A stretch of DNA of 23,509 nt, taken from the IMG/VR virus record IMGVR_UViG_2713896786_000017; one strand, written 5' to 3'. The first letter of the stretch is position 1. Each line of letters opens with the position of its first letter. The notes under the pieces were generated by a model. The model was not told the DNA's origin. It saw nothing but the letters and a program-made list of their open reading frames with translations, and did no database searches. The stretch comes from a virus (taxonomy: Duplodnaviria > Heunggongvirae > Uroviricota > Caudoviricetes). Position numbers and translations under genes: made by a program. Shown here one piece after another: positions 1-14,745 of the stretch.

Positions 1-869
1 CCACAAATCCACGGTACAACTGCAGCACTGCCGCCATGGCACTGCGCGTTAAATCCGGAAAGGTCAGTACGGAACTGCTTCAGCATGGCCGTGAACAGGT
101 CCGGTTGCTGTGCGTAGGTGGCAGCGCTCATGTCAAATTCGCCCTGCATCCAGCACACCGCCAGCAACACATTTTTCGGGTTCTTCTGTAATGCCGCTTT
201 GGTGCGTGCGATCAGGTCCTGATATAACGGTTTACCCACACCCCAGCGTGCCGAATCCTGGCTGGCCCCCGTGTCCGCACTGAATGTCCCCTCCGCGCCC
301 TGGGTGAATGCCGAACCACCACGACAGCATGGTACCAGCAGGATCCCCGCGTTATTCGGGATATACGGAAGCAGTTTTTTGGCAATATGTAAGCCCTGGC
401 CGACACAGCCGTACTGCCCTTTGCTCAGGTCTGCCTTCGGATGATTCAGTGCGCTCATATCCTGAACATCATGCAGGCAGTGGTCTGCCGGAATGATGTC
501 GTTAAATGCGCATGCTTTACCACCGGGAGTCACTGTGTTGCGACGGGCCAGTTGCTTAATGCGTGGGTGGGGCGCATCGTAAGAATCCGGCAGCGGCATT
601 CCATCACCATATGACATGGCATTGGATTGACCAGCAAGTACCACCACGTAATACCACTCCGGCACGCTGCCGTGCTGGGGGGAATCAGGTGAGATGTCTG
701 TAGTGCCATCGGCCACCATTGCCTGCATTAGATACCACGGGGTGCCGGGTTCGTAGGCAACCCGCGTCTCCCCCTGAAGATGCCACCCTTTCGCAAGATG
801 TTCATTCACCTTTTGAGTCAGTTCAGCCTGTGTCATGGCTGTAATCAGTGCAAAGTTCTTACTGGTCAT
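1..869 (-). CDS. nanS: Prophage NanS-p-like sialate O-acetylesterase (N-terminal extension plus SGNH/GDSL-type esterase domain); 3' end runs off the window start
   Basis: Manual minus-strand translation from ATG at 869 gives MTSKNFALITAMTQAELTQKV...YYVVVLAGQSNAMSYGDGMPLPD...PHPRIKQLARR...LLVPCCRGGSAFTQG...CWMQGEFD with no stop to position 1. GQSN esterase motif and close resemblance to E. coli NanS/YjhS as recalled. Start overlaps the Rz1-like stop (ATGA). Absent from the ORF track because no stop lies in the window. Confidence 0.8.
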   Translation of the reverse strand, partial: MTSKNFALITAMTQAELTQKVNEHLAKGWHLQGETRVAYEPGTPWYLMQAMVADGTTDISPDSPQHGSVPEWYYVVVLAGQSNAMSYGDGMPLPDSYDAPHPRIKQLARRNTVTPGGKACAFNDIIPADHCLHDVQDMSALNHPKADLSKGQYGCVGQGLHIAKKLLPYIPNNAGILLVPCCRGGSAFTQGAEGTFSADTGASQDSARWGVGKPLYQDLIARTKAALQKNPKNVLLAVCWMQGEFDMSAATYAQQPDLFTAMLKQFRTDLSGFNAQCHGGSAAVVPWIC

Positions 870-2922: not shown

Positions 2923-3723
2923 TTAACCGCGCTTCGCCTTCTGCGTCGCGGTGGTTTTTCGTGTTGCAGGCTTCCGCGTTGTCTTTTTACTTTTGCTGCT
3001 TTCGTCCTGCGCCTGCGGTGTGCTGGCATCTTCTGGTGCGGCTGCGGAATCGGCTTTTTTCAGGGCGCGGGAAAGGGTTGCAATCTCGCGTTTCACACCT
3101 GCGTTCGGGTTCAGGTGCATTGCTTCGCGCAGCAGCTTCAGTGATGAGGCCATGCTGTCCGCATCGGTCAGGCCACGGCGGGCAAAGGCGCACGCTTTGC
3201 ATAATTTGGCGCGCACTTCGTCCGGCATGTCCTGGTTGGCGACAATCTCCCGGAGGGTGTCCAGTGGTTCGATAAAGGCGGACAAATCCGCGTCGGCATC
3301 CGTCCCGGCCTGTGTCAGTACCGGATTACAGATTTCTTCGGTCAGTACCGTGGCAGCAGTACGGCCAAAGTTATCCGGCATGATGAGGTTGTGATGGACC
3401 ACATACGCGCCGATACGCAGCGCAAGCGGAAGATCGCCACAGTCAATCGCCCACACCATCAGCGTGGCAATCACTTCATCCTGCTGCCCGCCGTCAGCTT
3501 CCAGCGTTCCCTCAATCCAGCCGGAAAAATCCGGCAACAACTCTTTTTTGATGGCGGCTTTCGCGCTTCTGGCCTGTACGCCCTTTAGTCTGGCCTGTGC
3601 CAGACGCAGACGATACAGCACCTCTTCATGCGCGGTACGCGCGGCGTGGTCCACACCTTCATTCGCCCGGCCTGCGCGCTGTGCCATCACGTTCTGCCAG
3701 TGTTGTTGTGCAGGAGTAATCAT
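2923..3723 (-). CDS. M: Terminase endonuclease (small) subunit (P2 gpM-like)
   Basis: 266 aa track ORF; DMPDEVRAKL motif and basic K/R/T-rich C-terminal tail as in P2 gpM; conserved order N-M-L. Confidence 0.85.
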   Translation of the reverse strand: MITPAQQHWQNVMAQRAGRANEGVDHAARTAHEEVLYRLRLAQARLKGVQARSAKAAIKKELLPDFSGWIEGTLEADGGQQDEVIATLMVWAIDCGDLPLALRIGAYVVHHNLIMPDNFGRTAATVLTEEICNPVLTQAGTDADADLSAFIEPLDTLREIVANQDMPDEVRAKLCKACAFARRGLTDADSMASSLKLLREAMHLNPNAGVKREIATLSRALKKADSAAAPEDASTPQAQDESSKSKKTTRKPATRKTTATQKAKRG

Positions 3724-3768
3724 TTTTTCTCTCCGTTACAGGCGGGCATGATGCCCGCCGTGAGTTGA

Positions 3769-4821
3769 TTAGCTGTCGGCGAACTTCAGGCCAGTGACCA
3801 TCGCGCACTTGCCATAGTCTTCAACGACATAAGCGTCATTGATGGACTGGTAGGTGGCGATGCGGTTGTATTCCGGCTCGTCTTTCATCAGGCGACGCAT
3901 TGAACCTTTCTGCCAGTAAATCGACAGGTTGTTGAACGAGGTGATCAGCATCGTTGCATCCGGGAAGAACGGCGCAAGGAACACGCCCAGCCCGCCAATG
4001 GTGCGCGATGACAGGATGAGCTGCCCGGCAAGTAATTCCGCATTGGGATTCTGGCCGCTGATGCTGTTCAGCACGGGCAGACGCAGCGAGTTAAACAGGT
4101 TGCGCCCCATAATCACCACGAGGTCGTCAGCTTCCTTGTGCCATTCGTCCAGCAGGGATGAGCGCGCATCCTGTACCAGAGCATCGGCATTCGCATACTT
4201 ACCCGCGTGCGCCACAGTGTTGTCCATGTTGCGGGAGGTCAGCGTCACGTCATTCATTACGCGCTCGCTGGCATCGGTTCTGATGTGCTCCAGCCAGCCC
4301 ACGTTAACGTCCTGAAGCAGCTTGTTGGTGTGAAAATCAGACTCGTAGGCGTGGGATGTGCCGTTAAAGCCAATCATGATGCGATCAAGCGCTACCTGCC
4401 GGGCGATCTGTGTACTGATACGGGACTGAAAATCGCTGTGGGCCGCCCAGGTATCAAGCTGTGGGTACGAAATAAAGGTATCGTAGTTCACCTGTTCGCA
4501 CTGGTACTGACGAGACTTCATATCGATCACGTTATTCGGGTTACGGCGTTTGATGCCGTCATAACTGCTATTCGTGCGCGCAATTGGCCCGGTGGTGTCC
4601 GGGAGGATTTTTTCGCCTTTCTGGTCGGTCACGCCGATCACGTTAATTCTTTTCGTAAATTCGGTACTTTCCTTTGAGGCGTTTTCAAAACGCTGCTGCA
4701 CCGCGGGTTCCACGGTAAATCGCGATACCAGTGCAGATACCGGGATATTGTTAAGCGACGCCTGCTGCGCCATATAGCAACCCAGCTTGTTGCGGGTAAT
4801 ATCTGACATCACCAGATTCAT
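3769..4821 (-). CDS. N: Major capsid protein (P2 gpN-like)
   Basis: 350 aa track ORF; FTVEP, IMIGFNGTS, LQDVNVGWLE, DDLVVIMGR and SIYWQKGSMRR segments parallel P2 gpN as recalled. AAGGAG lies upstream of the ATG. Confidence 0.9.
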   Translation of the reverse strand: MNLVMSDITRNKLGCYMAQQASLNNIPVSALVSRFTVEPAVQQRFENASKESTEFTKRINVIGVTDQKGEKILPDTTGPIARTNSSYDGIKRRNPNNVIDMKSRQYQCEQVNYDTFISYPQLDTWAAHSDFQSRISTQIARQVALDRIMIGFNGTSHAYESDFHTNKLLQDVNVGWLEHIRTDASERVMNDVTLTSRNMDNTVAHAGKYANADALVQDARSSLLDEWHKEADDLVVIMGRNLFNSLRLPVLNSISGQNPNAELLAGQLILSSRTIGGLGVFLAPFFPDATMLITSFNNLSIYWQKGSMRRLMKDEPEYNRIATYQSINDAYVVEDYGKCAMVTGLKFADS

Positions 4822-4844
4822 AAAAAATTTGCTCCTTTGTCTTA

Positions 4845-5681
4845 TCAGAAGTCAGCCAGCTGGTCGGAGGCTGCACCTGTTGCGGTGAACCGGTTCTGCG
4901 GATCGCCGTCCTGCGTGCGCAGTTTTTCCTTCAGTGCTGCCAGCTCTGTGGTCAGTGACGTAATTTTCTGGCGGTCCTGCTGATGGCGGGTTTCCAGCAC
5001 ATTAAAACGGTCGATAATGTCGGCCTGTGACGTTGCGACGCCTTCCACCGCTTCCTGAATACGGGAAAAACTGGCGTCATCCGCTTTGCGGCCACGGCCA
5101 ATAATCCCCATTACGTGGTTAAACCACTGGGTGCCTTCTTCCTGGCGTTGTTCTGCCATTTCGATGATTTCAGACTCGATGGCTTCGGAGATAAGCGGCG
5201 CTTCACCCTGGACACTGTTGAACGTCATTACCGCCTGACGTTGCTGTGCCGTGAATTTCAGGCGCTCAGTGCCCAGGCTTGCCGGGGTGTCGGTCATCGC
5301 CAGCCCGACCAGATAGGCGCGCCCGTTAACGGAGAACTGCGGGTGCAGTTCGATACTGGAATAGATTTTCTTGCCGTCCGCGACAAGCTGCTTCATGCGC
5401 TCGGTCGGTTCGATTTCTGCATACAGCGCAGTACGTCCGGCCAGCGGACCTTCCGTAATGTCTTCCGTACTCAGTGCGGTGACATCGCCCATTGCGGAAA
5501 ATTCGCTTGACGGGCATGGCGAGAGATAGTGCTCAACGTTCACGCGGGCAGCGTAAACATCCGGGTTGAAGTTCTCGGCGGCTTCACGCAGATGCACCGG
5601 ACTGATTTCACGGCCATCAACAGTTGATCCGGAGACAGCCACGCGAAACTTTTTGCGGGATGTCTTTTTTTCATTAGCCAT
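4845..5681 (-). CDS. O: Capsid scaffolding protein (P2 gpO-like)
   Basis: Internal Met of track ORF 4845..5714 (MANEKKTSRKKFRVAVSGSTVDGREIS...) chosen because GAGGGG lies 9 nt upstream; LVGLAMTDTPASLGTE resembles P2 gpO. Confidence 0.85.
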   Translation of the reverse strand: MANEKKTSRKKFRVAVSGSTVDGREISPVHLREAAENFNPDVYAARVNVEHYLSPCPSSEFSAMGDVTALSTEDITEGPLAGRTALYAEIEPTERMKQLVADGKKIYSSIELHPQFSVNGRAYLVGLAMTDTPASLGTERLKFTAQQRQAVMTFNSVQGEAPLISEAIESEIIEMAEQRQEEGTQWFNHVMGIIGRGRKADDASFSRIQEAVEGVATSQADIIDRFNVLETRHQQDRQKITSLTTELAALKEKLRTQDGDPQNRFTATGAASDQLADF

Positions 5682-5835: not shown

Positions 5836-7587
5836 ATGATTCAGGACGCTTTTGTGCGCCAGCGTGCGCGGCAACTTTACTGGCAGGGTTATCCGCCCGC
5901 AGAAATATCACGTCTGATGGGAATAAACCCGAACACGATTTATGCGTGGAAAAAACGCGACCAGTGGGATGAAACGCCACCCGTGCAGCGTGTCACGCAG
6001 TCCATCGATGCGCGCCTCATCCAGCTTACTGAAAAACAGAATAAAACAGGCGGTGACTTTAAGGAAATAGACCTGCTGACCCGGCAGCTTAAAAAGCTGC
6101 ATGATGGCCAGCCGGATGTGATGGCCGCAGGAAAGAAAGGCCGGGCGAAAAAACTCAAAAATCATTTCACGCCGGAACAGATTTCCGCACTGCGGGAAAA
6201 AATCATCAGCAGGCTGGAGTGGCATCAGCGGGGCTGGTTTGACTCCCTGACCCTTTGCAGGGAAGCCGGGATACGTAACAGGATGATCCTGAAATCCCGA
6301 CAGATTGGGGCGACCTGGTATTTTGCACAGGAAGCTCTGCTGATGGCGCTGCGTGACGATGTGGCGCAACCTTACCAGCGTAACCAGATTTTTTTGTCTG
6401 CGTCGCGTCGTCAGGCGTTCCAGTTTAAAAGCATTATTCAGAAGGCCGCGGCTGAAGTTGATGTGGAGCTGAAAGGGGGCGATAAAATCATCCTCTCCAA
6501 CGGCGCAGAGCTGCATTTTCTCGGCACTTCTGCTGCGTCGGCACAGTCCTATACGGGCAATTTTTATTTTGATGAATTTTTCTGGGTCAGTCGCTTTGCT
6601 GAACTGCGCAAGGTGGCTGGCGCTATGGCAACCCTCAGCGGACTGCGGCGCACCTACTTCTCCACGCCATCCACCGAAACGCACGAGGCATACGCCTACT
6701 GGAACGGCGACCGCTGGAACGAGAAAAAGGCCTCGCATAAACGCCAGCGTTTTTCTGTGGACTGGAAAACGCTGCATAACGGGCTTATCTGCCCTGACCG
6801 GACGTGGCGGCAAATTGTCACGCTGGAAGATGTGGTTAATCACGGCTGGAAACACACCGATATCGACGAAATTCGTGATGAAAACACCGAAGACGAGTTC
6901 CTCAATCTCTATATGTGTGAGTTTGTCCGCGAAGGGGAATCGGCATTTAACCTGAATATCCTGATTGGCTGCGGTGTTGACGGATACGACGACTGGAAAG
7001 ACTGGAAACCTTTTGCTCCCCGACCGATGGGGAATCGTCCGGTATGGATTGGGTATGACGCAAACGGCAGTAGTGGCAACGGCGACAGCGGCGCTGTGTC
7101 CGTGGTGGTTCCTCCGGCTGTTCCTGGTGGCCGTTTTCGAACGGTGGAGACGCGACGCGTTCAGGGGCTGGAGTTTGAAGAACAGGCCAGAGTCATTGAA
7201 GAGTTCACGTATCGCTACAACGTGGAACACATCGGCATTGATGTGACGGGCGGGAACGGGGAGGCTGTTTATCAGATAGTGAAGCGGTTTTTCCCTGCTG
7301 CTATTCCGTACACCTTCACGCTGTCATCAAAACGGTCGCTGGTACTGAAAATGCTGCAAATAATGCGTGCCGGGCGGTGGGAATACGATCGCGCCGAACG
7401 TGAGCTGGTCGCGGCCTTTAACGCCGTGCGTAAGGTGAAAACACCGGGCGGCTTTATCACTTACGAAACGGACCGCGCGAGGGGGATCAGCCACGGCGAC
7501 CTTGCGTGGGCAACCATGCTTGCTGTCATTAACGAACCGATTGGCGGCGAAGGAGAAAACGAGCGTTTCACGGTTATGGAGTTCTGA
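5836..7587 (+). CDS. P: Terminase ATPase (large) subunit (P2 gpP-like)
   Basis: 583 aa track ORF with terminase-like ATPase region (ILKSRQIGATWYF...); precedes Q with overlapping stop/start (TGATG). Confidence 0.9.
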   Translation: MIQDAFVRQRARQLYWQGYPPAEISRLMGINPNTIYAWKKRDQWDETPPVQRVTQSIDARLIQLTEKQNKTGGDFKEIDLLTRQLKKLHDGQPDVMAAGKKGRAKKLKNHFTPEQISALREKIISRLEWHQRGWFDSLTLCREAGIRNRMILKSRQIGATWYFAQEALLMALRDDVAQPYQRNQIFLSASRRQAFQFKSIIQKAAAEVDVELKGGDKIILSNGAELHFLGTSAASAQSYTGNFYFDEFFWVSRFAELRKVAGAMATLSGLRRTYFSTPSTETHEAYAYWNGDRWNEKKASHKRQRFSVDWKTLHNGLICPDRTWRQIVTLEDVVNHGWKHTDIDEIRDENTEDEFLNLYMCEFVREGESAFNLNILIGCGVDGYDDWKDWKPFAPRPMGNRPVWIGYDANGSSGNGDSGAVSVVVPPAVPGGRFRTVETRRVQGLEFEEQARVIEEFTYRYNVEHIGIDVTGGNGEAVYQIVKRFFPAAIPYTFTLSSKRSLVLKMLQIMRAGRWEYDRAERELVAAFNAVRKVKTPGGFITYETDRARGISHGDLAWATMLAVINEPIGGEGENERFTVMEF

Positions 7588-8633
7588 TGAGCAGAAAAAA
7601 TAAAAAAGTGCGCATGAGTTCACGCATTGATCTCGCTGATGCGCTCAGGAAAGAATCATCGCTCAGTGCATTCACATTTGATGGTCCTTATCGCCTGACC
7701 GGGCATGACCTGCTGGACAATATGTACTGTGCTGATAACGGGCGGTGGTATGAAACCCCGGTGGACTGGTACGGTCTGGCAAGAGCAGCCCGGCAAACGT
7801 CCTGGCATCAGTCTGCGCTTTACTTTAAGCGCAATGTATTACTCGGTTGCTACATCCCGCACCCGCTGCTTTCCCGGCAGGATTTCTCGGCGCTGGCGCT
7901 GGACTGGTTTGTGTTCGGTAACGCATTCCTTGAGCTTCGAAGCAATATGCTCGGCGAACCGCTTAAATTACGGCACGCCCTGGCGAAATACATGCGACGC
8001 GGAAGCGATCTTGAATCATGGTGGTATGTGCAGGATGGCAAGGACGCGTTTCAGTTTCGCCCTGGCAAAGTGTGCCACCTGATGAATCCTGACATTAACC
8101 AGGAAATCTACGGCATGCCGGAATATCTCGGCGCATTACTCTCGGCCAGCCTGTCTCATTCGGCGGACATGTTCAGAAAACTGTATTACGACAACGGATC
8201 CCACGCCGGGTGCATCATCTACATCGGTGCAGCGCAGGTAAACCGCGAAAGCATGGACTCCCTGAAAGAAACGCTACAGGGTGCACGTGGTGGTGGTGCG
8301 TTTAAAAACGTGCTCATTCATGCGCCCAACGGTGGCAAAGAGGGGGTGCAAATTTTGCCGTTCCAGCAGATCACCGCAAAAGATGAGTTTATGAATGTTA
8401 AGGCGGCATCCCGTGATGATGTGCTGGCTGCGCACCGCGTTCCGCCGCAACTGATGGGGGCGATGCCGGGCGAAAAAAGTGCGTTTGGTGATGTGGAGAA
8501 GGCCGCGCGGGTTTACGCAATTAACGAGCTGATGCCCGTCATGGAGGCCATGAAGCACATCAATGACTGGCTTGGCGAAGAGGTGATCCGCTTTAACCCT
8601 TACGCACTGTTAGATACCCAGCCCACATCCTGA
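7587..8633 (+). CDS. Q: Portal protein (P2 gpQ-like)
   Basis: 348 aa track ORF, last gene before the cos region as in P2; portal-like central region. Confidence 0.85.
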   Translation: MSRKNKKVRMSSRIDLADALRKESSLSAFTFDGPYRLTGHDLLDNMYCADNGRWYETPVDWYGLARAARQTSWHQSALYFKRNVLLGCYIPHPLLSRQDFSALALDWFVFGNAFLELRSNMLGEPLKLRHALAKYMRRGSDLESWWYVQDGKDAFQFRPGKVCHLMNPDINQEIYGMPEYLGALLSASLSHSADMFRKLYYDNGSHAGCIIYIGAAQVNRESMDSLKETLQGARGGGAFKNVLIHAPNGGKEGVQILPFQQITAKDEFMNVKAASRDDVLAAHRVPPQLMGAMPGEKSAFGDVEKAARVYAINELMPVMEAMKHINDWLGEEVIRFNPYALLDTQPTS

Positions 8634-9056
8634 CGCGCTTCGCTTGTCTGCTGCTTCGCCGGGGCATAAAAAATTTATGCCCCGACTCTCCAGCTCCTGT
8701 ATCAATCAGATAATTTCACGACGCTTTCCTGCTTATTGCCATCATCGACGGTCAGACTCTTACGCAATCCCACTGCGCTGACTGCATGTTCTCGCCGCCT
8801 CAGTGCGATTTTGACGGCCTTATCTGCCACCCCATCAAAGCAAAAGCCCTCACGTCTTTTTCACGCTCAGCGTGAGAAATACAGCCATTCTGTTGTATCT
8901 CTGCGACACCGTTCAGGGGATGCTATTTACCCCCTGAAGCGCGGGCTGTTCCCCCGTCACCTGCGCGTAGAAAAAGCGCGTTTTTTTGTGCACGCACGGA
9001 TCCTTGACGGATCCAGCCGCCATGCGGGCCGGAAGGGTAAAAAGTCGTTCAAAAAA

Positions 9057-9086
9057 ATTGTGCAAATTTGTGCACTTTTGTGCAAA
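9057..9086. repeat. Three direct TTGTGCA repeats at 10 bp spacing (iteron-like)
   Basis: attgtgcaaa tttgtgcact tttgtgcaaa at about 9057..9086, read directly from the sequence. Confidence 0.6.
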
Positions 9087-9120
9087 CAAAAAGCGCCCCT
9101 GAGGCGCTTTAGTGTTTTAT
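9087..9120 (-). terminator. Rho-independent terminator ending the A-parM-parR-orf143-orf87 transcription unit
   Basis: aaagcgcc-cctga-ggcgcttt hairpin (about 9089..9110); on the minus-strand transcript it is followed by UUUUGUUUG. Confidence 0.55.
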
Positions 9121-9144
9121 AGGTTGTGTATATTGGCTGGGTCC

Positions 9145-9408
9145 TTATCCTGCTGTGCTTTCAAGTGATGAGGGGAACAAAATCTTTTCATCAAACCCTG
9201 CATTCATATCATGGACAGCAACACACCAATCCATTGACGAACGATTATCAAGAGCCTCCATGATTTCATCCATGCGGCGTAGGTCATACAGGTAAATGCT
9301 TTTATCGCCAATGGTGTAAAAACCAATTTTTTTCGGTGATGGACAGCGATCAAGAACGTCCTGTAATTCGCTCAACCATGCTTGTTCTTTTTTTGTCAAA
9401 GTTGCCAT
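9145..9408 (-). CDS. Hypothetical protein (87 aa), last gene of the cargo operon
   Basis: ATG at 9408 lies 1 nt after the orf143 stop with AAAGGAGAG upstream; the track start at 9429 is a TTG extension. No recognisable domain. Confidence 0.5.
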   Translation of the reverse strand: MATLTKKEQAWLSELQDVLDRCPSPKKIGFYTIGDKSIYLYDLRRMDEIMEALDNRSSMDWCVAVHDMNAGFDEKILFPSSLESTAG

Positions 9409-9409
9409 A

Positions 9410-9841
9410 TCACTCTCCTTTGATGCCAATGTCTACAGCTTGGCAAGCCTCTTTGGTCACCCAGTCAATAGCGTCTTTCCATACTCCAGTTTCGACTGGC
9501 GGATTCTCACGCTTTACCTGTTCATAGAAACGCACCGCTCTAACCAGTCCATCTGGTACTGCTGGCGCTGGCGGCTCTCGATACATAGGGATAACACGTC
9601 GCGGGTCCGCGTATTTATCTGGCGGACACTGAAATATCTCACCGAAACCATACTGCTTGACATCACGCAGTTCCTCATCATCAGTCCATGCAACAGGTTT
9701 CGCTTCCAGCGATGTGAGTGCGATTTTCAGTGCGATTAACATATTGTGATCGTTTTCATCAAGGCCAAACGGGATGTCTTCACGACACGATTCAAGGTCT
9801 GCAATTTTGCGTTGTAACCATTTTTTGGGGATAGTTGCCAT
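9410..9841 (-). CDS. Hypothetical protein (143 aa), third gene of the cargo operon
   Basis: Track ORF; ATG 19 nt after the ParR-like stop with AGGAGAGGAG upstream. No recognisable domain. Confidence 0.55.
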   Translation of the reverse strand: MATIPKKWLQRKIADLESCREDIPFGLDENDHNMLIALKIALTSLEAKPVAWTDDEELRDVKQYGFGEIFQCPPDKYADPRRVIPMYREPPAPAVPDGLVRAVRFYEQVKRENPPVETGVWKDAIDWVTKEACQAVDIGIKGE

Positions 9842-9860
9842 AGATGCTCCTCTCCTGTTT

Positions 9861-10175
9861 TCACTCTGGGAAAAATGACTGAATGTTCTTTCTTATCTCG
9901 CTAGTGCTGTGATTGCTTCCGGTGGCAGGTGCGCTGGCATATTTACTCTGAATATTATTCTTGGCTGGCGCAGCTCCTTCTTCCGGCCATTCGGCCAACC
10001 AATAGGCAAATGCAGGATCGCGTTTTATGAGTGCCAGCCCGGCCAGAAAGGCCGCGCGTTGCGCGCGGCTGCGTTCAGAGGCTGGCAGGCTGTCGAGGTA
10101 ATTACACGCCTCCCGTTCACTATTGACGGCGACTGGCTTCAGATAGAAACTTATCCGTCTGGTTGGTGTCGTCAT
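9861..10175 (-). CDS. parR: ParR-like DNA-binding adaptor of a type II (actin-type) partition system
   Basis: Internal Met of track ORF 9861..10310, 5 nt after the ParM-like stop, with AAGGAG overlapping that stop. MTTPTRRISFYLKPVAVNSEREACNYLDSLPASERSRAQRAAFLAGLALIKRDP parallels the N-terminal half of plasmid R1 ParR as recalled. Confidence 0.7.
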   Translation of the reverse strand: MTTPTRRISFYLKPVAVNSEREACNYLDSLPASERSRAQRAAFLAGLALIKRDPAFAYWLAEWPEEGAAPAKNNIQSKYASAPATGSNHSTSEIRKNIQSFFPE

Positions 10176-10179
10176 TGGT

Positions 10180-11139
10180 TTACTCCTTGTCCATTGCGTA
10201 CAGCCCATTAACCAGAGCAAACTGTGGCACCCCGTCCGCGATGAAAGTCGCATTAACTCCGCAGGCTTCGCGGATAGCGGGTGCCACAATCTCCGTCCCA
10301 CCACCGACAACCATCACCCGCCCGTAACCCGAAAAACCCGCCAGCGCGCGGATCACGCGTTGTTTCAGTGTTTCTTCCTTTTCACGAATAACCGCCATCA
10401 GGCTGGCGTAATGCGCGTCATTGTGGATGTGCTGGCGCAGCCAGGCTTCATCATGGCGATGTTCGATAATGGTATTGGCGATGTGGTGACTGGTGCGCAT
10501 ACCGTTAGTGGCCATCACCGACAGTACGGCATCGGCCATCAGAGAAACGCCTACGTGTGGATCGCAAAACACCTGGCTGATACCTGCCAGTTGCCCCTGA
10601 ACCTTTGCCACATCCAGCGTGGTTCCGCCCAAATCCACAATCAGCAGGGATTCAAACGGACTCATGTCAGCCAGTGCCTTAAAGCCAGCCGGAATGGATT
10701 CAGGCATAACCCGTACGTTACGGATAGTGAATGCTTCGCCGTTCTGGTACTCCACCGGGCGCATAACGTTCGCTTTTTTGCGGTTGATATTGGTCATGTC
10801 CGGCTGTGCGTTTGTGTCGAAATACTCGCTCAGTGGCAGGGTGACAACCACATCCACCTCCTGTGGTGTGATGCCTGATTTGACCAGCGCGTGATGAATG
10901 GCAATGACATTCACATCGCTGTATTGGTATTGCGTGTCGGTCGTCTGGACAAAGCGATCGCTGACCGGATCAAAACCATAGCGCACGCCATCAAGCATGT
11001 AGTTCGCGGGCTGCGTGCCACCGAACGGCGCAGACCATTCCGACTTGAAGCTGTTCGGGCTGATGGCGTTGCGGCGTTCGCCGTTCTCAGTCCATGCCAG
11101 CTTGATGTTGGTGGAGCCGTCGTCGATACAAATTTTCAT
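10180..11139 (-). CDS. parM: ParM/StbA-like actin-fold ATPase
   Basis: 319 aa track ORF. MKICIDDGSTNIKLAW, ISPNSFK, YQYSDVNVIAIHHAL, VMPESIPAGF, DLGGTTLDV and VVGGGTEIV parallel plasmid R1 ParM motifs as recalled. Confidence 0.85.
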   Translation of the reverse strand: MKICIDDGSTNIKLAWTENGERRNAISPNSFKSEWSAPFGGTQPANYMLDGVRYGFDPVSDRFVQTTDTQYQYSDVNVIAIHHALVKSGITPQEVDVVVTLPLSEYFDTNAQPDMTNINRKKANVMRPVEYQNGEAFTIRNVRVMPESIPAGFKALADMSPFESLLIVDLGGTTLDVAKVQGQLAGISQVFCDPHVGVSLMADAVLSVMATNGMRTSHHIANTIIEHRHDEAWLRQHIHNDAHYASLMAVIREKEETLKQRVIRALAGFSGYGRVMVVGGGTEIVAPAIREACGVNATFIADGVPQFALVNGLYAMDKE

Positions 11140-11215
11140 GTCGCTTTTCCTTATGTTGATTAATTAATCGTTTACGGGATTCTGAAATCCCGTTTTTGCC
11201 TGTTTTGTGCGCGCT
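11140..11215 (-). promoter_or_regulatory. parM upstream region: candidate promoter overlapping an 8 bp-stem hairpin (possible ParR operator / parC-like site)
   Basis: Minus-strand TTTCAG...17 nt...ATTAAT resembles a sigma70 -35/-10 pair and overlaps ACGGGATTTCAGAATCCCGT; AAGGAAAAG precedes the parM ATG. Confidence 0.4.
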
Positions 11216-14056
11216 TCATATATCGCTGCGCGTTTTTTGCTCATTTACGGGATTCGTGAGTCCCGTTTCTGTCTGTTTTTTGTTTCCACTGGTCAGGCCA
11301 CCCCGCAGCAGGTCTGCTTTGCGGCGGGCGCGTTCAGTGGTTTCACTGATTCTCTGTGCGTGCTCTGCGTCGCGGATGGCGCGCAGCATGTCAGAAAGCA
11401 CGGTAACGGGTGTTTTCATGGTGTTCTGGTCCTGCTGAAGTGTGGATGCCAGGCGTGCGGCGGCTTCAGGGTCTGATGCCCCCAGCTGTGTCAGATAGCT
11501 GGCGACCGGGTTATGGCGGATCTCCGTGCTGCTTACGCCATGATTACGGCTCAGGCGCTGCCAGAGCTGCGTGATTCGGCTGTCCGGGCGGGTATCCGGT
11601 TTGCGTACAATTTCAAATCCCTGCGGTGCAATGATGCTGCCGTCAACGTACAGACTGCCGCCCCGTAACAGGTGCTGCATCTGTTGTTCACCGATATGCA
11701 GGCCGAGAGATTCAGCAGACTCCCGCCATTCTTTAGCGAGTAATTCGTGGTTATCAGGCAAAGGCCGCTGCTGTTTGCGGCTCTGTGTCCAGCTCTGCAT
11801 TTCATCACTGCTGTTTTTTGCCTGTTTGTCACGAAGCGAACGCATCAGCGCCCGGCGTTCGTGCCGTTTCAGTGAGCGCATCCATTCATCCACATCAACG
11901 CCGTCAGGGAGCTGCGGCCACGGTGCTGGCCGTTCTTCCGGCTGTTCTGTCCCGTTGTTGTCCGTTTCCTGTACACGGGGACAGTTATTGCCACGAGTCC
12001 AAGGGGCGGCAGGGCCGCCCTGAAGGTCAAAACCATTTTCGCGGGCGCTGTCTTCCGCTTCCGGTTTGCGTCTTACCAGCTTCCAGTTATCCGGATGCGT
12101 GCATACGCGGGAAGACTCCCCAATGAGCGGCGACCAGATCCCGTAAATCTGTACGCTCTGTTCACCGTAATCGTTCAGCTCATCTGCGAGGTCGTAGGCG
12201 GTGCGAATCAGGTAGTCTTTGCGTGGAACAAGTACGCCACCCTGTTTCTCAATGTAGGTGGCAAAACATCCGGCATCAGCGGCAGCGAGTACCGCGTCCA
12301 TTGCGTCATCCTTCAGCCGTTGCGGGCCTTCCGGGTTGCGTGCCATCTGGCTGGCAAGGCGGCGCAGTTCACGCCACACCTGACGGGAGGGGATACCAAA
12401 GAACTGGAACTGGCGGACCCGGTGAAGGCGCGCCCAGCCGATGGCGCGTTCCACGCTCTCGGCCATTGATTTTCCGGTTTCGTGGTCAACGCGTGGCTTG
12501 CCCGTTTTCGGGTCGATGCCATCCACGGCGCGGCTGTCCAGGTTCTTTCCGATGTAGGTGGCGATGTAGCTGGTTGGTGTGCCTTTTGAGCCGTCGACAT
12601 ACTCCACCTTAAAGCGCGGAGTAATATCATTGCCCAGCTCGTGGCGGTCTTCCTGAATGGCAATATCGCGGGTGATGGCCACGATGCTGTCGATTTCTTC
12701 CGGATGAGCAAAGACCATCATATGCCAGTGCACAGTGCCGTCATGGTGAGGCTCCACCGTGCGGATGCCATACCAGCGCAGACCGTCGCGGTTCAGTTTT
12801 TTGCGGACCGCCGCAAAAAACGTGTTAACCAGGTAATCGCTGGAGTCGCGCATGGTGGCCCCGTTCCATTTAGGGTTCGGATGACCGTTCTCCGTTGTTG
12901 CGTGGTATTTTGACGGGCAGGTGACAGTCAGAAACACCGCTCTGTCGCCACGGGCTTCGGCCAGAAGTTCCAGTCCCTTCATGGTGGCCATCATTTCTGC
13001 CTTACGGTGAACCGGGTTACTTACTCCCGCGTAATACACTGTCTCGAGATCAATCGTGAACCCGTCTTCGTTTTCCAGCATGAAACTTTTCAGGAAATCG
13101 CGTGTTTTCTCGCGCTGTGCGCGAAACTCGCTTAACGCGTCCTGGCTCAGATAGGGTGATGTTTTTCTGGAAACCAGACAGGCGGCGCGGAGTTGTTCTT
13201 CTCTCCACTCGCAACGTAACAGCCACAGTTTGCGTTTCCACCATTCCGCACAGGTCAGGCGAAGGATTGCGCCCGGCAGCAGCTCCGTGTCTGGTTCGTT
13301 CCTCCGGTCTTTGTCTGTTGTCAGTGCGTCATAATGTGGAGGCATGGCGTGCAGGTGTAACGCCATGCGGGCCAGCATCTGATACGTCTTCAGCGTTACA
13401 TCCATGGTCAGCTCGCCATCGGTCGCGCCAAAGCCATCGCAGAGTTTTTCGAAGGTGCTGCTGAACATCGCCGCCGTCATGGTGGCCAGCGTCTGTATCT
13501 GGTGTTTGTTGAGCTGCGGCAGGTAAAGCAAATCGTCCAGGCGTTCGCGTCCGGCAAGGGAGCGATAACCAGGTGTCAGCCAGCGCCCGTCAGTGCGATC
13601 CAGACGTTCGAATATTTTGCGCAGGGTTCCGCGTGCATAGCGTTCCGCCTGCCAGCTCTTTTTGCCTTTCTGACGATCGGCTTCCTGCTTCTTGCGCAGG
13701 AAAGAGAGGTGGCGGCTCAGAGGTTCTCGCAGATAAACGGGAAGCGCCTTCAGTGTGGCAAAGGCACGGGCTACCGGGTCTTGTTCTGTTGCCCGGCGCT
13801 TACTGATGATGCTCTGTGCCAGCTTCTCACGCTGTCCGGCTTCCTCAAGGGATGCCATGAGTTTTTTACCCATGGCGGATTGTGCGAAAAAGGCTTCTTT
13901 CTTCGCTTCCTGTTCTTCCTGTGCCCTTTTGTCCGCCTCAAGGTAGTAACGGATGGCGCGTTGCAGGTCGGTTTCAGTTTCCTGCCTGTGCTCCGTAAAT
14001 CTGGCCGGATCAATAGCTGGTCGTGGTTCATTCCAGCTCCATGCAAACGCACTCAT
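11216..14056 (-). CDS. A: Rolling-circle replication initiation protein (P2 gpA-like HUH endonuclease)
   Basis: Track ORF 11216..14083 (955 aa). HUH motif in GTVHWHMMVFAHPEE and paired tyrosines in TSYIATYIGKNL. The ATG at 14056 overlaps the upstream stop (ATGA) and is the likelier start; 14083 is a GTG. Confidence 0.85.
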   Translation of the reverse strand: MSAFAWSWNEPRPAIDPARFTEHRQETETDLQRAIRYYLEADKRAQEEQEAKKEAFFAQSAMGKKLMASLEEAGQREKLAQSIISKRRATEQDPVARAFATLKALPVYLREPLSRHLSFLRKKQEADRQKGKKSWQAERYARGTLRKIFERLDRTDGRWLTPGYRSLAGRERLDDLLYLPQLNKHQIQTLATMTAAMFSSTFEKLCDGFGATDGELTMDVTLKTYQMLARMALHLHAMPPHYDALTTDKDRRNEPDTELLPGAILRLTCAEWWKRKLWLLRCEWREEQLRAACLVSRKTSPYLSQDALSEFRAQREKTRDFLKSFMLENEDGFTIDLETVYYAGVSNPVHRKAEMMATMKGLELLAEARGDRAVFLTVTCPSKYHATTENGHPNPKWNGATMRDSSDYLVNTFFAAVRKKLNRDGLRWYGIRTVEPHHDGTVHWHMMVFAHPEEIDSIVAITRDIAIQEDRHELGNDITPRFKVEYVDGSKGTPTSYIATYIGKNLDSRAVDGIDPKTGKPRVDHETGKSMAESVERAIGWARLHRVRQFQFFGIPSRQVWRELRRLASQMARNPEGPQRLKDDAMDAVLAAADAGCFATYIEKQGGVLVPRKDYLIRTAYDLADELNDYGEQSVQIYGIWSPLIGESSRVCTHPDNWKLVRRKPEAEDSARENGFDLQGGPAAPWTRGNNCPRVQETDNNGTEQPEERPAPWPQLPDGVDVDEWMRSLKRHERRALMRSLRDKQAKNSSDEMQSWTQSRKQQRPLPDNHELLAKEWRESAESLGLHIGEQQMQHLLRGGSLYVDGSIIAPQGFEIVRKPDTRPDSRITQLWQRLSRNHGVSSTEIRHNPVASYLTQLGASDPEAAARLASTLQQDQNTMKTPVTVLSDMLRAIRDAEHAQRISETTERARRKADLLRGGLTSGNKKQTETGLTNPVNEQKTRSDI

Positions 14057-14514: not shown

Positions 14515-14745
14515 TTAATGGAGTTTGTTTTGCTGCTGGATGAGCTGTTGAAGCTCGTGCAGATCATCCGCCAGATAGCTGAAAACAGAGGCGGAATAAA
14601 TGTTTGATAGTGCGTGGCTGCGCTCATGCAGCATATTGATGTGCATGATTTGCGCGACGCGTGATGCGCGGTAAAGTCTGCGGTTGATTTCAGTCTGGAT
14701 GTGACGACGCGCAGCGTATGCGCGCTGTTGTTTGCGGTTTGCCAT
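14515..14745 (-). CDS. Hypothetical small basic protein (76 aa)
   Basis: Track ORF with ACGAGG 8 nt upstream of the ATG; arginine-rich helical N-terminus. An overlapping 205 aa ORF in another frame was rejected. Confidence 0.4.
   Translation of the reverse strand: MANRKQQRAYAARRHIQTEINRRLYRASRVAQIMHINMLHERSHALSNIYSASVFSYLADDLHELQQLIQQQNKLH

Follow-up and report, generated by a model that had tools for sequence, protein, structure and literature searches.

A probable ParMRC-like segregation module fixed at the replication end of P88-like P2 prophages of Escherichia coli

P88-like phages of the P2 family carry a parM-parR gene pair beside their replication gene A. This pair is a fixed, common and inherited feature of the lineage and not cargo. 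We consider it probable that the pair, together with the DNA upstream of it, amounts to a DNA-segregation module of type II (ParMRC-like) that is complete and functional, at the replication end of these phages. The observations comprise protein identities, intact motifs, purifying selection, synteny with gene A across genera, the boundaries of a variable region and a pair of palindromes. The window, that is the whole stretch of DNA analysed here (23,509 nt, IMGVR_UViG_2713896786_000017), is a P2-family prophage of E. coli O104:H4. The occurrence of parMR in P88-like phages and the idea of an episome are already published (Pfeifer 2021; Rousset 2022; PMC9122126, PMC7969092), and parMR is no new kind of system.

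Four minus-strand open reading frames of the window match RefSeq CDSs of E. coli O104:H4 2011C-3493 at 100% identity (Table 1) and thus exist as an earlier note on this DNA had given them. Their tight coupling is equally real, since the spacers between parM, parR, the 143-aa gene and the 87-aa gene measure 4, 19 and 1 nt. The note had further described an operon-ending terminator, and a strong intrinsic terminator is found on the minus strand just beyond the interval 9145-11215. On the upstream side, gene A and parM are separated by 76 bp on the same strand and the terminator scan detected no minus-strand terminator between them. By analogy with P2, gene A would be the last gene of the early operon. 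The locus lies between A and cos/Q, where P2 has tin and old (PMC9122126), again as first described. The cos site is presumably contained in the conserved non-coding stretch 8634-9090 beside Q, judging from P2 synteny only; a query with an approximate P2 cos sequence had no hit at up to three mismatches. A scan of positions 8500-11500 against Rfam gave no match at E values up to 1.

Table 1. Features of the parMR locus and its surroundings (positions in the window)
Feature	Position	Strand	Description
Portal gene Q	7587-8633	+	converges on the operon from the other side
Intrinsic terminator	9090-9110	-	predicted end of the parM-parR-cargo transcription unit; 9-bp stem with 5 GC pairs, then TTGTTTG
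Variable hotspot within the window	9100-10020		both cargo genes and the 3' two-thirds of parR
Cargo gene 2	9145-9408	-	87 aa, conserved prophage protein
Cargo gene 1	9410-9841	-	143 aa, mosaic Ead/Ea22-like prophage protein
parR (stbB)	9861-10175	-	104 aa, adaptor with ribbon-helix-helix-type N-terminus
parM	10180-11139	-	319 aa, actin-fold segregation ATPase
Proximal 42-nt direct repeat	11168-11209	-	contains the 20-bp palindrome ACGGGATT-N4-AATCCCGT at 11174-11193
Gene A	11216-14056	-	replication endonuclease, 946 aa, RefSeq CDS; directly upstream of parM
Distal 42-nt repeat	11241-11282	-	contains a palindrome at 11247-11266; lies within gene A, at its 3' end

The 319-aa protein is a canonical ParM, as the earlier note had proposed. 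It matches the Pfam families StbA_N (E 2.9e-82) and ParM C-terminal domain (E 5.6e-68), and it aligns with the structures of R1 ParM (PDB 1mwk) over residues 2-316, i.e. its full length, with E 3e-92 and 46% identity. The residues of the nucleotide-binding motifs (D6-D7-G8-S9-T10, E147, D169/G171-G172-T173-T174-L175-D176 and G279-G280-G281) are invariant in an alignment of 12 diverse ParMs. The protein therefore has what a type II system calls for in its ATPase, an actin fold with intact phosphate-1, phosphate-2 and adenosine motifs. Across 71 alleles, a pN/pS of 0.074 indicates that parM is under strong purifying selection.

The adaptor was also correctly recognised. ParR matches Pfam Plasmid_stab_B (E 3.8e-25, residues 6-66) and the pB171 ParR structure 2jd3 (E 0.005, residues 6-61). 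As in other type II systems, this small ribbon-helix-helix-type adaptor comes right after parM, at a distance of 4 nt. Its two ends are conserved while its middle is allelic. The N-terminus, MTTPTRRISFYLKP, is almost invariant and is about 43% identical to that of the IncF-type plasmid ParR. At the other end, a (K/R)-N-I-x-x-(F/L)-F-P motif is kept in all allele types; distant prophage ParRs have N-A-x-x-L-F-P there and ICE or plasmid ParRs N-A-(K/R)-x-M-F. The motif, which resembles the C-termini of ICE and plasmid ParRs, is a candidate ParM-docking peptide. Within allele types the pN/pS of parR ranges from 0.10 to 0.34. At least four allele types exist (48-100% identity), and the ParMs adjoining them are 98-100% identical.

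The earlier note had read all four genes as one cargo operon. This does not hold. In 68 related loci, the stretch from about 10030 upwards (parR 5' end, parM and A) is conserved in 96-100%: parM and the parR 5' end are found in all 68 loci, which were picked via ParM, and A adjoins them in 96-97%. Coverage falls to 6-18% within 9100-10020, against 100% above about 10050 and about 88% below about 9050. The variable hotspot thus runs from inside parR, with its boundary at about 10020, to the terminator. Since the hotspot starts inside parR, parM and parR are its conserved flank and should not be scored as hotspot content. Presence and absence vary for the 143-aa and 87-aa genes and not for parM and the parR 5' end. 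Furthermore, the same parM precedes 39 cargo types in 71 loci, the type of the window accounting for three of them; parMR is therefore part of the framework of the lineage, and the cargo is confined to the two small genes. For the P88-like lineage, this redraws the P2 gpA-gpQ hotspot, with the two small genes as its only real content here.

The two small proteins were said to lack recognisable domains. This stands as far as Pfam and NCBIfam are concerned, where neither protein has a match (NCBIfam gave sub-threshold hits only), yet both belong to PHROG families, 660 (phrog_660, E 1.8e-43, for the 143-aa protein) and 1714, each of unknown function. Across 28 homologues, the 143-aa protein is a mosaic of three modules. 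Its AF2 model is mostly helical (pLDDT 71), and a fold search with this model returned no significant match. The two genes are also found side by side in lambdoid and P22-like phages, in which the copies of the 143-aa gene are annotated Ea22 or Ead/Ea22-like. The pair is a swappable cassette, unrelated to parMR and independent of it.

The gpA-gpQ locus is a known defence hotspot of P2, at the position of tin and old (PMC9122126), and in other P88-like phages the slot just downstream of parR is occupied by cargo that does match defence families (AbiL, IetAS, RmrA-like, PDC-M11A or PDC-M04A). These facts could favour a second idea of the earlier note, namely a repurposed actin-like ATPase that joins the 143-aa and 87-aa proteins in the defence against, or the exclusion of, other phages. 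However, a PADLOC search at E values up to 1 matched none of the four proteins to a catalogued defence family. ParM keeps all canonical features of a segregation ATPase. Unlike defence cargo, parMR remains the same from locus to locus, and it is the genes after it that differ (39 types among 71 loci, three of which have the window's type), so that parMR and the two small genes are not co-inherited. We regard a defence role as highly improbable.

The pair is widespread. Of 5426 complete E. coli genomes, 1266 (about 23%) have the junction between the 3' end of A and parM; these are 1266 of the 1437 genomes that match the junction query. Carriers include O104:H4, O157:H7, EPEC E2348/69 and one ST131 isolate, and a single genome can hold up to four copies of the locus. 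parM also lies beside A in all records of P88-like (Xuanwuvirus) phages examined. The earlier note had found a partition module unexpected in an integrase-carrying phage; the integrase is indeed present, but with the module in about 23% of the complete E. coli genomes and already published, the word needs toning down.

The nearest relatives of ParM, with 62, 62, 58 and 54% identity, belong to P2-like prophages of Plesiomonas, Hafnia, Serratia and Enterobacter. All four share the order gpA, zero to two genes, parM, parR, cargo and portal. They fall into two clades, each with a bootstrap of 200/200. Monophyly of all phage-borne ParMs was considered and not retained as a firm claim, the bootstrap being just 90/200. 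The relatives in other genera were reached by protein search and contig look-ups; the more distant ParMs that were examined for context are on an ICE and on an integrated plasmid.

Why would an integrating phage keep a plasmid-type partition system? One answer, suggested in the literature (Pfeifer 2021; Rousset 2022; PMC9122126, PMC7969092) and also raised in the earlier note, is a facultative phage-plasmid lifestyle in which parMR keeps P88-like phages as stable low-copy plasmids, for instance in hosts without attB, in alternation with integration. By sequence parMR is a full partition system of the plasmid type, and one complete P88-like genome of 34,461 bp has been deposited as a circular plasmid (NZ_CP148288.1). 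Against this, the locus has 1619 chromosomal and 2 plasmid places in the complete E. coli genomes, and a phage that is 99.9% identical to NZ_CP148288.1 over the 1.8-kb stretch compared, from portal to parM, is integrated in the chromosome of another strain. A circular plasmid record also exists for pENTAS02 (NC_015969.1), a P2-like phage without parMR; such records are therefore not specific to parMR. The window has an integrase and is inserted in the chromosome beside btuC; no plasmid-type replication initiator was seen in its annotation, in which the rolling-circle gene A is the only replication gene. Phage-plasmids are recognised by extrachromosomal upkeep and plasmid-type replication, usually with no need of an integrase, and this combination was not found. 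Of the earlier proposal, the one circular record speaks for it and the integrase and the chromosomal places against it, and we judge stable plasmid maintenance to be decidedly unlikely.

If parMR segregates DNA, a centromere is expected near parM. The hairpin repeats announced in the earlier note are real: the pattern AAACGGGA-N6-AATCCCGTAAA has two matches, at 11171-11195 and 11244-11268, where 0.01 are expected by chance. They belong to two repeat copies that lie 73 bp apart and are 81% identical to each other; the proximal palindrome is about 44 bp upstream of the parM ATG. In nine relatives the palindrome arms are conserved and the loop is variable. Plesiomonas has an analogous repeat pair with a spacing of 72 bp, and the Hafnia, Serratia and Enterobacter prophages have GGGA...TCCC palindromes directly upstream of parM. 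The palindromes stay there even where other genes part A from parM, and the N-terminal RRISFYLKP strand of ParR is kept alongside them. We propose the pair as a putative ParR operator or centromere. A centromere of the known kind consists of repeated ParR sites overlapping the parM promoter; here two candidate sites are present, and no convincing sigma-70 promoter was detected upstream of parM in the window, where none has the right orientation, or in relatives. The sole matches of the promoter scans upstream of parM in Serratia and Enterobacter overlap the start codon.

The role of the palindromes is ambiguous because both also score as terminator-like hairpins on the plus strand, each an 8-bp stem with a T-rich tail behind it. 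They could be intrinsic terminators which shield gene A from antisense transcription of opposite-strand cargo, and not ParR sites at all. Some hotspot cargo (AbiL, DUF4760) is indeed encoded on the opposite strand, and antisense hairpins of terminator-like form also precede parM in the Serratia relative. Such terminators would, however, be oddly placed, after and not before 1.3 kb of antisense parMR. Moreover, in the Plesiomonas counterparts the dyad ends and the 72-bp spacing are retained, but the stems are weak and there is no T-run, and compensatory changes in the stems were not seen. For the palindromes, a function purely as terminators is in our opinion unlikely.

The diversity of ParR raises a further possibility, in which phage ParR and parC act, by partition-mediated incompatibility or interference, against other P88-like phages in the same cell or against resident ParMRC plasmids, and ParR diversity would be a means of escape. 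It would fit with the at least four allele types of ParR (48-100%) beside nearly identical ParMs (98-100%), the up to four locus copies per genome and the similarity of the ParR N-terminus to IncF-type ParR (about 43%). In contrast, all allele types conserve the palindromes and the N-terminal strand that presumably reads the DNA, so that centromere specificity does not seem to diversify. We consider such competition very unlikely.

We return to segregation as the favoured role. ParR dimers would bind the two palindromes upstream of parM, and ParM-ATP filaments, capped by the ParR-DNA complexes, would push copies of the circular extrachromosomal phage genome apart. This would happen when phage DNA is transiently free, either in the time between infection and integration, following excision or early in replication. 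During this free phase, genome copies would go to both cell halves or be positioned for replication. parMR would be co-transcribed with the early operon, and the cassette of the 143-aa and 87-aa genes would be read through from parMR up to the terminator at 9090-9110; parMR also borders the gpA-gpQ hotspot as its conserved left flank. Replication of the P2 type is lytic and shut off in lysogens, so that a gain from partition on a non-replicating episome is hard to see. A more specific version seems possible, with odds somewhat below even: ParMR would be an early-expressed phage cytoskeleton, and ParR-anchored ParM filaments would spread or position replicating or unintegrated P2-type genomes and thereby raise burst size or lysogen yield. 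The allelic diversity of ParR might bring in some competition among phages that share a cell. If true, ParMR would be the first system of actin-based DNA positioning to be shown for a temperate phage of E. coli. A look for expression evidence in EHEC proteome and transcriptome papers that mention CP-933T gave no result specific to the partition genes.

Comparison with known systems places the module close to ParMRC (parA/stb) of R1 and IncF plasmids. The order parM-parR with a repeat element upstream is the same, as are the nucleotide-binding motifs of ParM (46% identity over the full length to R1) and the Pfam family of ParR, whose N-terminus (about 43% identity) and C-terminal motif are akin to those of IncF plasmids. 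Unlike R1, a theta-replicating plasmid, the P88-like pair is found on an integrating P2-family prophage after a rolling-circle gene A, and its ParR is shorter (104 aa). The R1 parC consists of ten 11-bp direct iterons, whereas a pair of 20-bp palindromes, spaced 73 bp apart, makes up the candidate centromere. This far smaller number of sites counts against a role in segregation.

Two systems on integrating elements offer parallels that would support the proposed action. In the C. glutamicum prophage CGP3, AlpAC/alpS pairs an actin-like ATPase with a co-transcribed DNA-binding adaptor which binds sites upstream of the operon; their induction is early, and CGP3 depends on them to replicate efficiently (PMC4446434). 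AlpAC is the best functional analogue if the role is lytic or early, although AlpC belongs to a different actin-like branch and a Gram-positive host, whereas the P88-like module is close to plasmid ParM/ParR. SrpMRC performs active partition of the transient extrachromosomal plasmid-like form of SXT/R391 ICEs (PMC4489591). Being of the ParM type and on a normally integrated element, it is the best analogue for the stabilisation of a transient episome; it serves a conjugative element and not a phage, and it is likened here by description, not by sequence. A ParM/ParR pair was also seen on a Dickeya ICE. If the proposed role is true, parMR would be evidence, beside AlpAC and SrpMRC, for an active management of the extrachromosomal phase by elements that integrate, and an actin machine of the plasmid type would be routine in one of the commonest prophage lineages of E. 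coli.

Within the phage collection, the only other record with a ParM homologue is the P1-like phage-plasmid D6 (47.5% identity, annotated StbA-type). P1-like phages are maintained as plasmids, and D6, at 91 kb, differs from the integrating P2-like phage of the window (about 35 kb). A search of a contig collection with ParM returned three near-identical loci only, one of which is labelled Vagococcus.

In E. coli O104:H4 the window (100% identity to NC_018658.1) is a prophage of the P2 family whose insertion site adjoins btuC. Its closest phage relatives place it in Xuanwuvirus, a genus of P88-like phages within Peduoviridae. Four closely spaced genes (intergenic spacers of 4, 19 and 1 nt) lie between genes A and Q and end at a terminator. 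The earlier note had described this group, and the description is confirmed because the ORFs, the spacing and the terminator were found and all four ORFs coincide with RefSeq coding sequences, parM and parR being already annotated there. RefSeq also lists two genes which may be further accessory or regulatory phage genes: one for a 626-aa DUF6645 protein between lysis and tail genes (window 1-869, truncated by the window start; 3390-5270 in the reference locus L001), and a small 'derepression protein' gene upstream of A (window 14515-14745; L001 18916-19146).

Features of the interval between genes A and Q (window coordinates)
Feature	Position	Strand	Remark
portal gene Q	7587-8633	+	converges on the four-gene group
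strong intrinsic terminator	9110-9090	-	after the 87-aa ORF
87-aa ORF	9145-9408	-	RefSeq CDS
143-aa ORF	9410-9841	-	RefSeq CDS
parR	9861-10175	-	104 aa; RefSeq CDS
parM	10180-11139	-	319 aa; RefSeq CDS
proximal palindrome	11174-11193		inside 42-nt repeat, upstream of parM
distal palindrome	11247-11266		inside 42-nt repeat, in last codons of A
replication gene A	11216-14056	-	flanks the four-gene group upstream

The 319-aa protein matches the Pfam StbA_N (2.9e-82) and ParM C-terminal (5.6e-68) domains and aligns over its full length with R1 ParM crystal structures (E 3e-92, 46% identity). An alignment of 12 diverse ParMs shows no change at the residues of the phosphate-1, phosphate-2 and adenosine motifs. 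These comparisons identify a canonical ParM, as proposed earlier under the label of a ParM-like actin ATPase. The companion assignment of a ParR-like adaptor is also borne out: the 104-aa protein is classed as ParR/StbB by its match to Pfam Plasmid_stab_B (3.8e-25) and by that of residues 6-61 to the pB171 ParR structure 2jd3 (E 0.005). Its N-terminus, MTTPTRRISFYLKP, is nearly invariant, and the conserved C-terminal motif N-I-x-x-x-F-P is common to distant prophage ParRs and similar in those of ICEs and plasmids. At least four allele types can be told apart by the middle of the protein; among the P88-like IMG/VR loci (L020-L099), ParR as a whole has 48-100% identity to that of the window. Beside this allelic ParR, ParM identity across the 80 P88-like loci is 98-100%. 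The pN/pS ratio is 0.074 for parM (71 alleles), indicative of strong purifying selection, and 0.10-0.34 for parR within allele types.

The four genes had been read as one cargo operon, and this reading is not upheld. Within the phage collection, a ParM homologue is confined to 14 records of P88-like phages and to the P1-like phage D6; every P88-like record has the order A-parM-parR, while the genes 3′ of parR vary. In an additional sample of 80 IMG/VR loci, the parR-to-portal interval spans 992-4170 bp; by this interval 71 loci sort into 39 types, three of the 71 having that of the window. Coverage across 68 loci shows that the region above ~10030 is common to 96-100% of them, 9100-10000 to only 6-18%, and the cos-proximal stretch below 9050 to ~88%. 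Since these boundaries are sharp, the hotspot starts inside parR, with a recombination boundary at ~10020, and stops at the terminator. On this comparative basis parMR is a lineage framework which flanks the hotspot and lies outside its content. In other P88-like prophages the same slot harbors AbiLi/AbiLii (AbiL; loci L024/L065/L089), IetA with a 734-aa partner (IetAS; L094/L097), an RmrA-like protein (L062/L072), PDC-M11A (L087), PDC-M04A (L095) or a Phd/Doc-like pair (L055/L085). This agrees with the literature, in which the gpA-gpQ locus is described as a defence hotspot (PMC9122126).

The 143-aa and 87-aa proteins were said to lack recognisable domains, and Pfam and NCBIfam searches indeed gave no match. 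They fall into PHROG 660 and PHROG 1714, respectively, both families without functional label. Lambdoid and P22-like phages have the adjacent pair in their early regions too, with 93-96% nucleotide identity over part of its length, and their annotations call the larger gene Ea22 or Ead/Ea22-like. The two genes are one hotspot insert, a lambdoid-type cassette unrelated to parMR. The 143-aa protein is a mosaic of three modules: a variable N-terminus, a IALASLEAEPVAW hinge and a conserved C-terminal ~50 aa. In its model, a helical stretch of ~50 residues bears a weak likeness to Aqs1, a phage anti-activator (Foldseek probability 0.99, E 0.41); this likeness may be trivial. The 87-aa protein is confidently modelled (pLDDT 88) as a small α/β domain for which no solved structural relative was found; its family is of constant length across Enterobacterales, with invariant W11, C22-P23-S24-P25 and Y41-D42. 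A role of parMR and the small genes in defence or exclusion, also suggested earlier, is not supported, PADLOC defence models having matched none of the four proteins.

Beyond the clade with ParM identity of at least 91%, the nearest ParM relatives are found in Plesiomonas (62%), Hafnia (62%), Serratia (58%) and Enterobacter (54%), in P2-like prophages with the order gpA-(0-2 genes)-parM-parR-cargo-portal. Distance trees place these prophage ParMs in two clades (bootstrap 200/200 each), the union of which reaches only 90/200. Cross-genus synteny and purifying selection together mark the module as old, selection-maintained and tied to the replication end of the phage lineage. Among more remote ParMs, the contexts checked were one ICE and one integrated plasmid. 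On the apparent ICE (locus L100, Dickeya chromosome CM001975.1), which has an integrase, TraG and TraU, a ParM/ParR pair gives one more example of a type II partition module in an element that integrates. In a P88-like prophage region on a contig labelled Vagococcus sp. (L010, NZ_JBQPOM010000071.1), ParM has 98% and the portal 100% identity to their E. coli counterparts; the label is probably due to contamination or a mislabelled assembly.

Upstream of parM, a 42-nt direct repeat is present twice, each time with a 20-bp palindrome inside; the two lie 73 bp apart. Nine close relatives differ in the loops, but not in the cores, of the palindromes. A comparable pair in Plesiomonas is spaced by 72 bp, and in Hafnia, Serratia and Enterobacter GGGA...TCCC-ended dyads lie directly 5′ of parM, even with genes between A and parM. 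This pattern fits a candidate ParR operator/centromere which moves with parM. On the plus strand, both palindromes are in addition called intrinsic terminators (8-bp stem and T-rich tail), and the Serratia relative has antisense terminator-like hairpins 5′ of parM (L015 7899-7968). Promoter scans upstream of parM, in the window and in relatives, gave no convincing promoter.

The parMR pair and the idea of an episome were published earlier by Pfeifer et al. and Rousset et al., and the finding is an ordinary case of a known kind. Added here are its position as a framework flanking the hotspot, the synteny with A conserved across genera, the conserved palindrome pair 5′ of parM, an allelic ParR beside a near-constant ParM, and the lambdoid-type, parMR-unrelated nature of the 3′ two-gene cassette.

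The ParMRC machine is complete in its protein parts, which are under constraint, and it has a plausible cis site. Its only possible substrate is the circular DNA of the phage itself during the time spent outside the chromosome. By analogy with P2, gene A would be the last gene of the early operon; because parM lies 76 bp past A and a scan of this gap detected no terminator, parMR would be expressed early, together with the replication genes. Genome copies could then be spread or positioned after infection, after excision or during replication. Such a role has two analogues with experimental support: the phage DNA of prophage CGP3 depends on AlpAC for its efficient replication (PMC4446434), and SrpMRC actively partitions the transient extrachromosomal form of SXT/R391 ICEs (PMC4489591).

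A stable plasmid lifestyle, the episomal state which the earlier note had considered, is possible but poorly supported. One complete P88-like genome with parMR is deposited as a circular plasmid of 34.5 kb from E. coli (NZ_CP148288.1), but so is a P2-like phage without parMR (NC_015969.1, Enterobacter soli pENTAS02, 32.6 kb). Moreover, the window phage has an integrase gene, and integration is overwhelmingly the state observed: all matches to a query spanning the A 3′-end/parM junction fall in 1619 chromosomal versus 2 plasmid places. At a query coverage of at least 80%, 1266 of the 5426 complete E. coli genomes have this junction, O157:H7 and E2348/69 among them; an ST131 host was found among the phage records. 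Both circular-plasmid records still encode an integrase.
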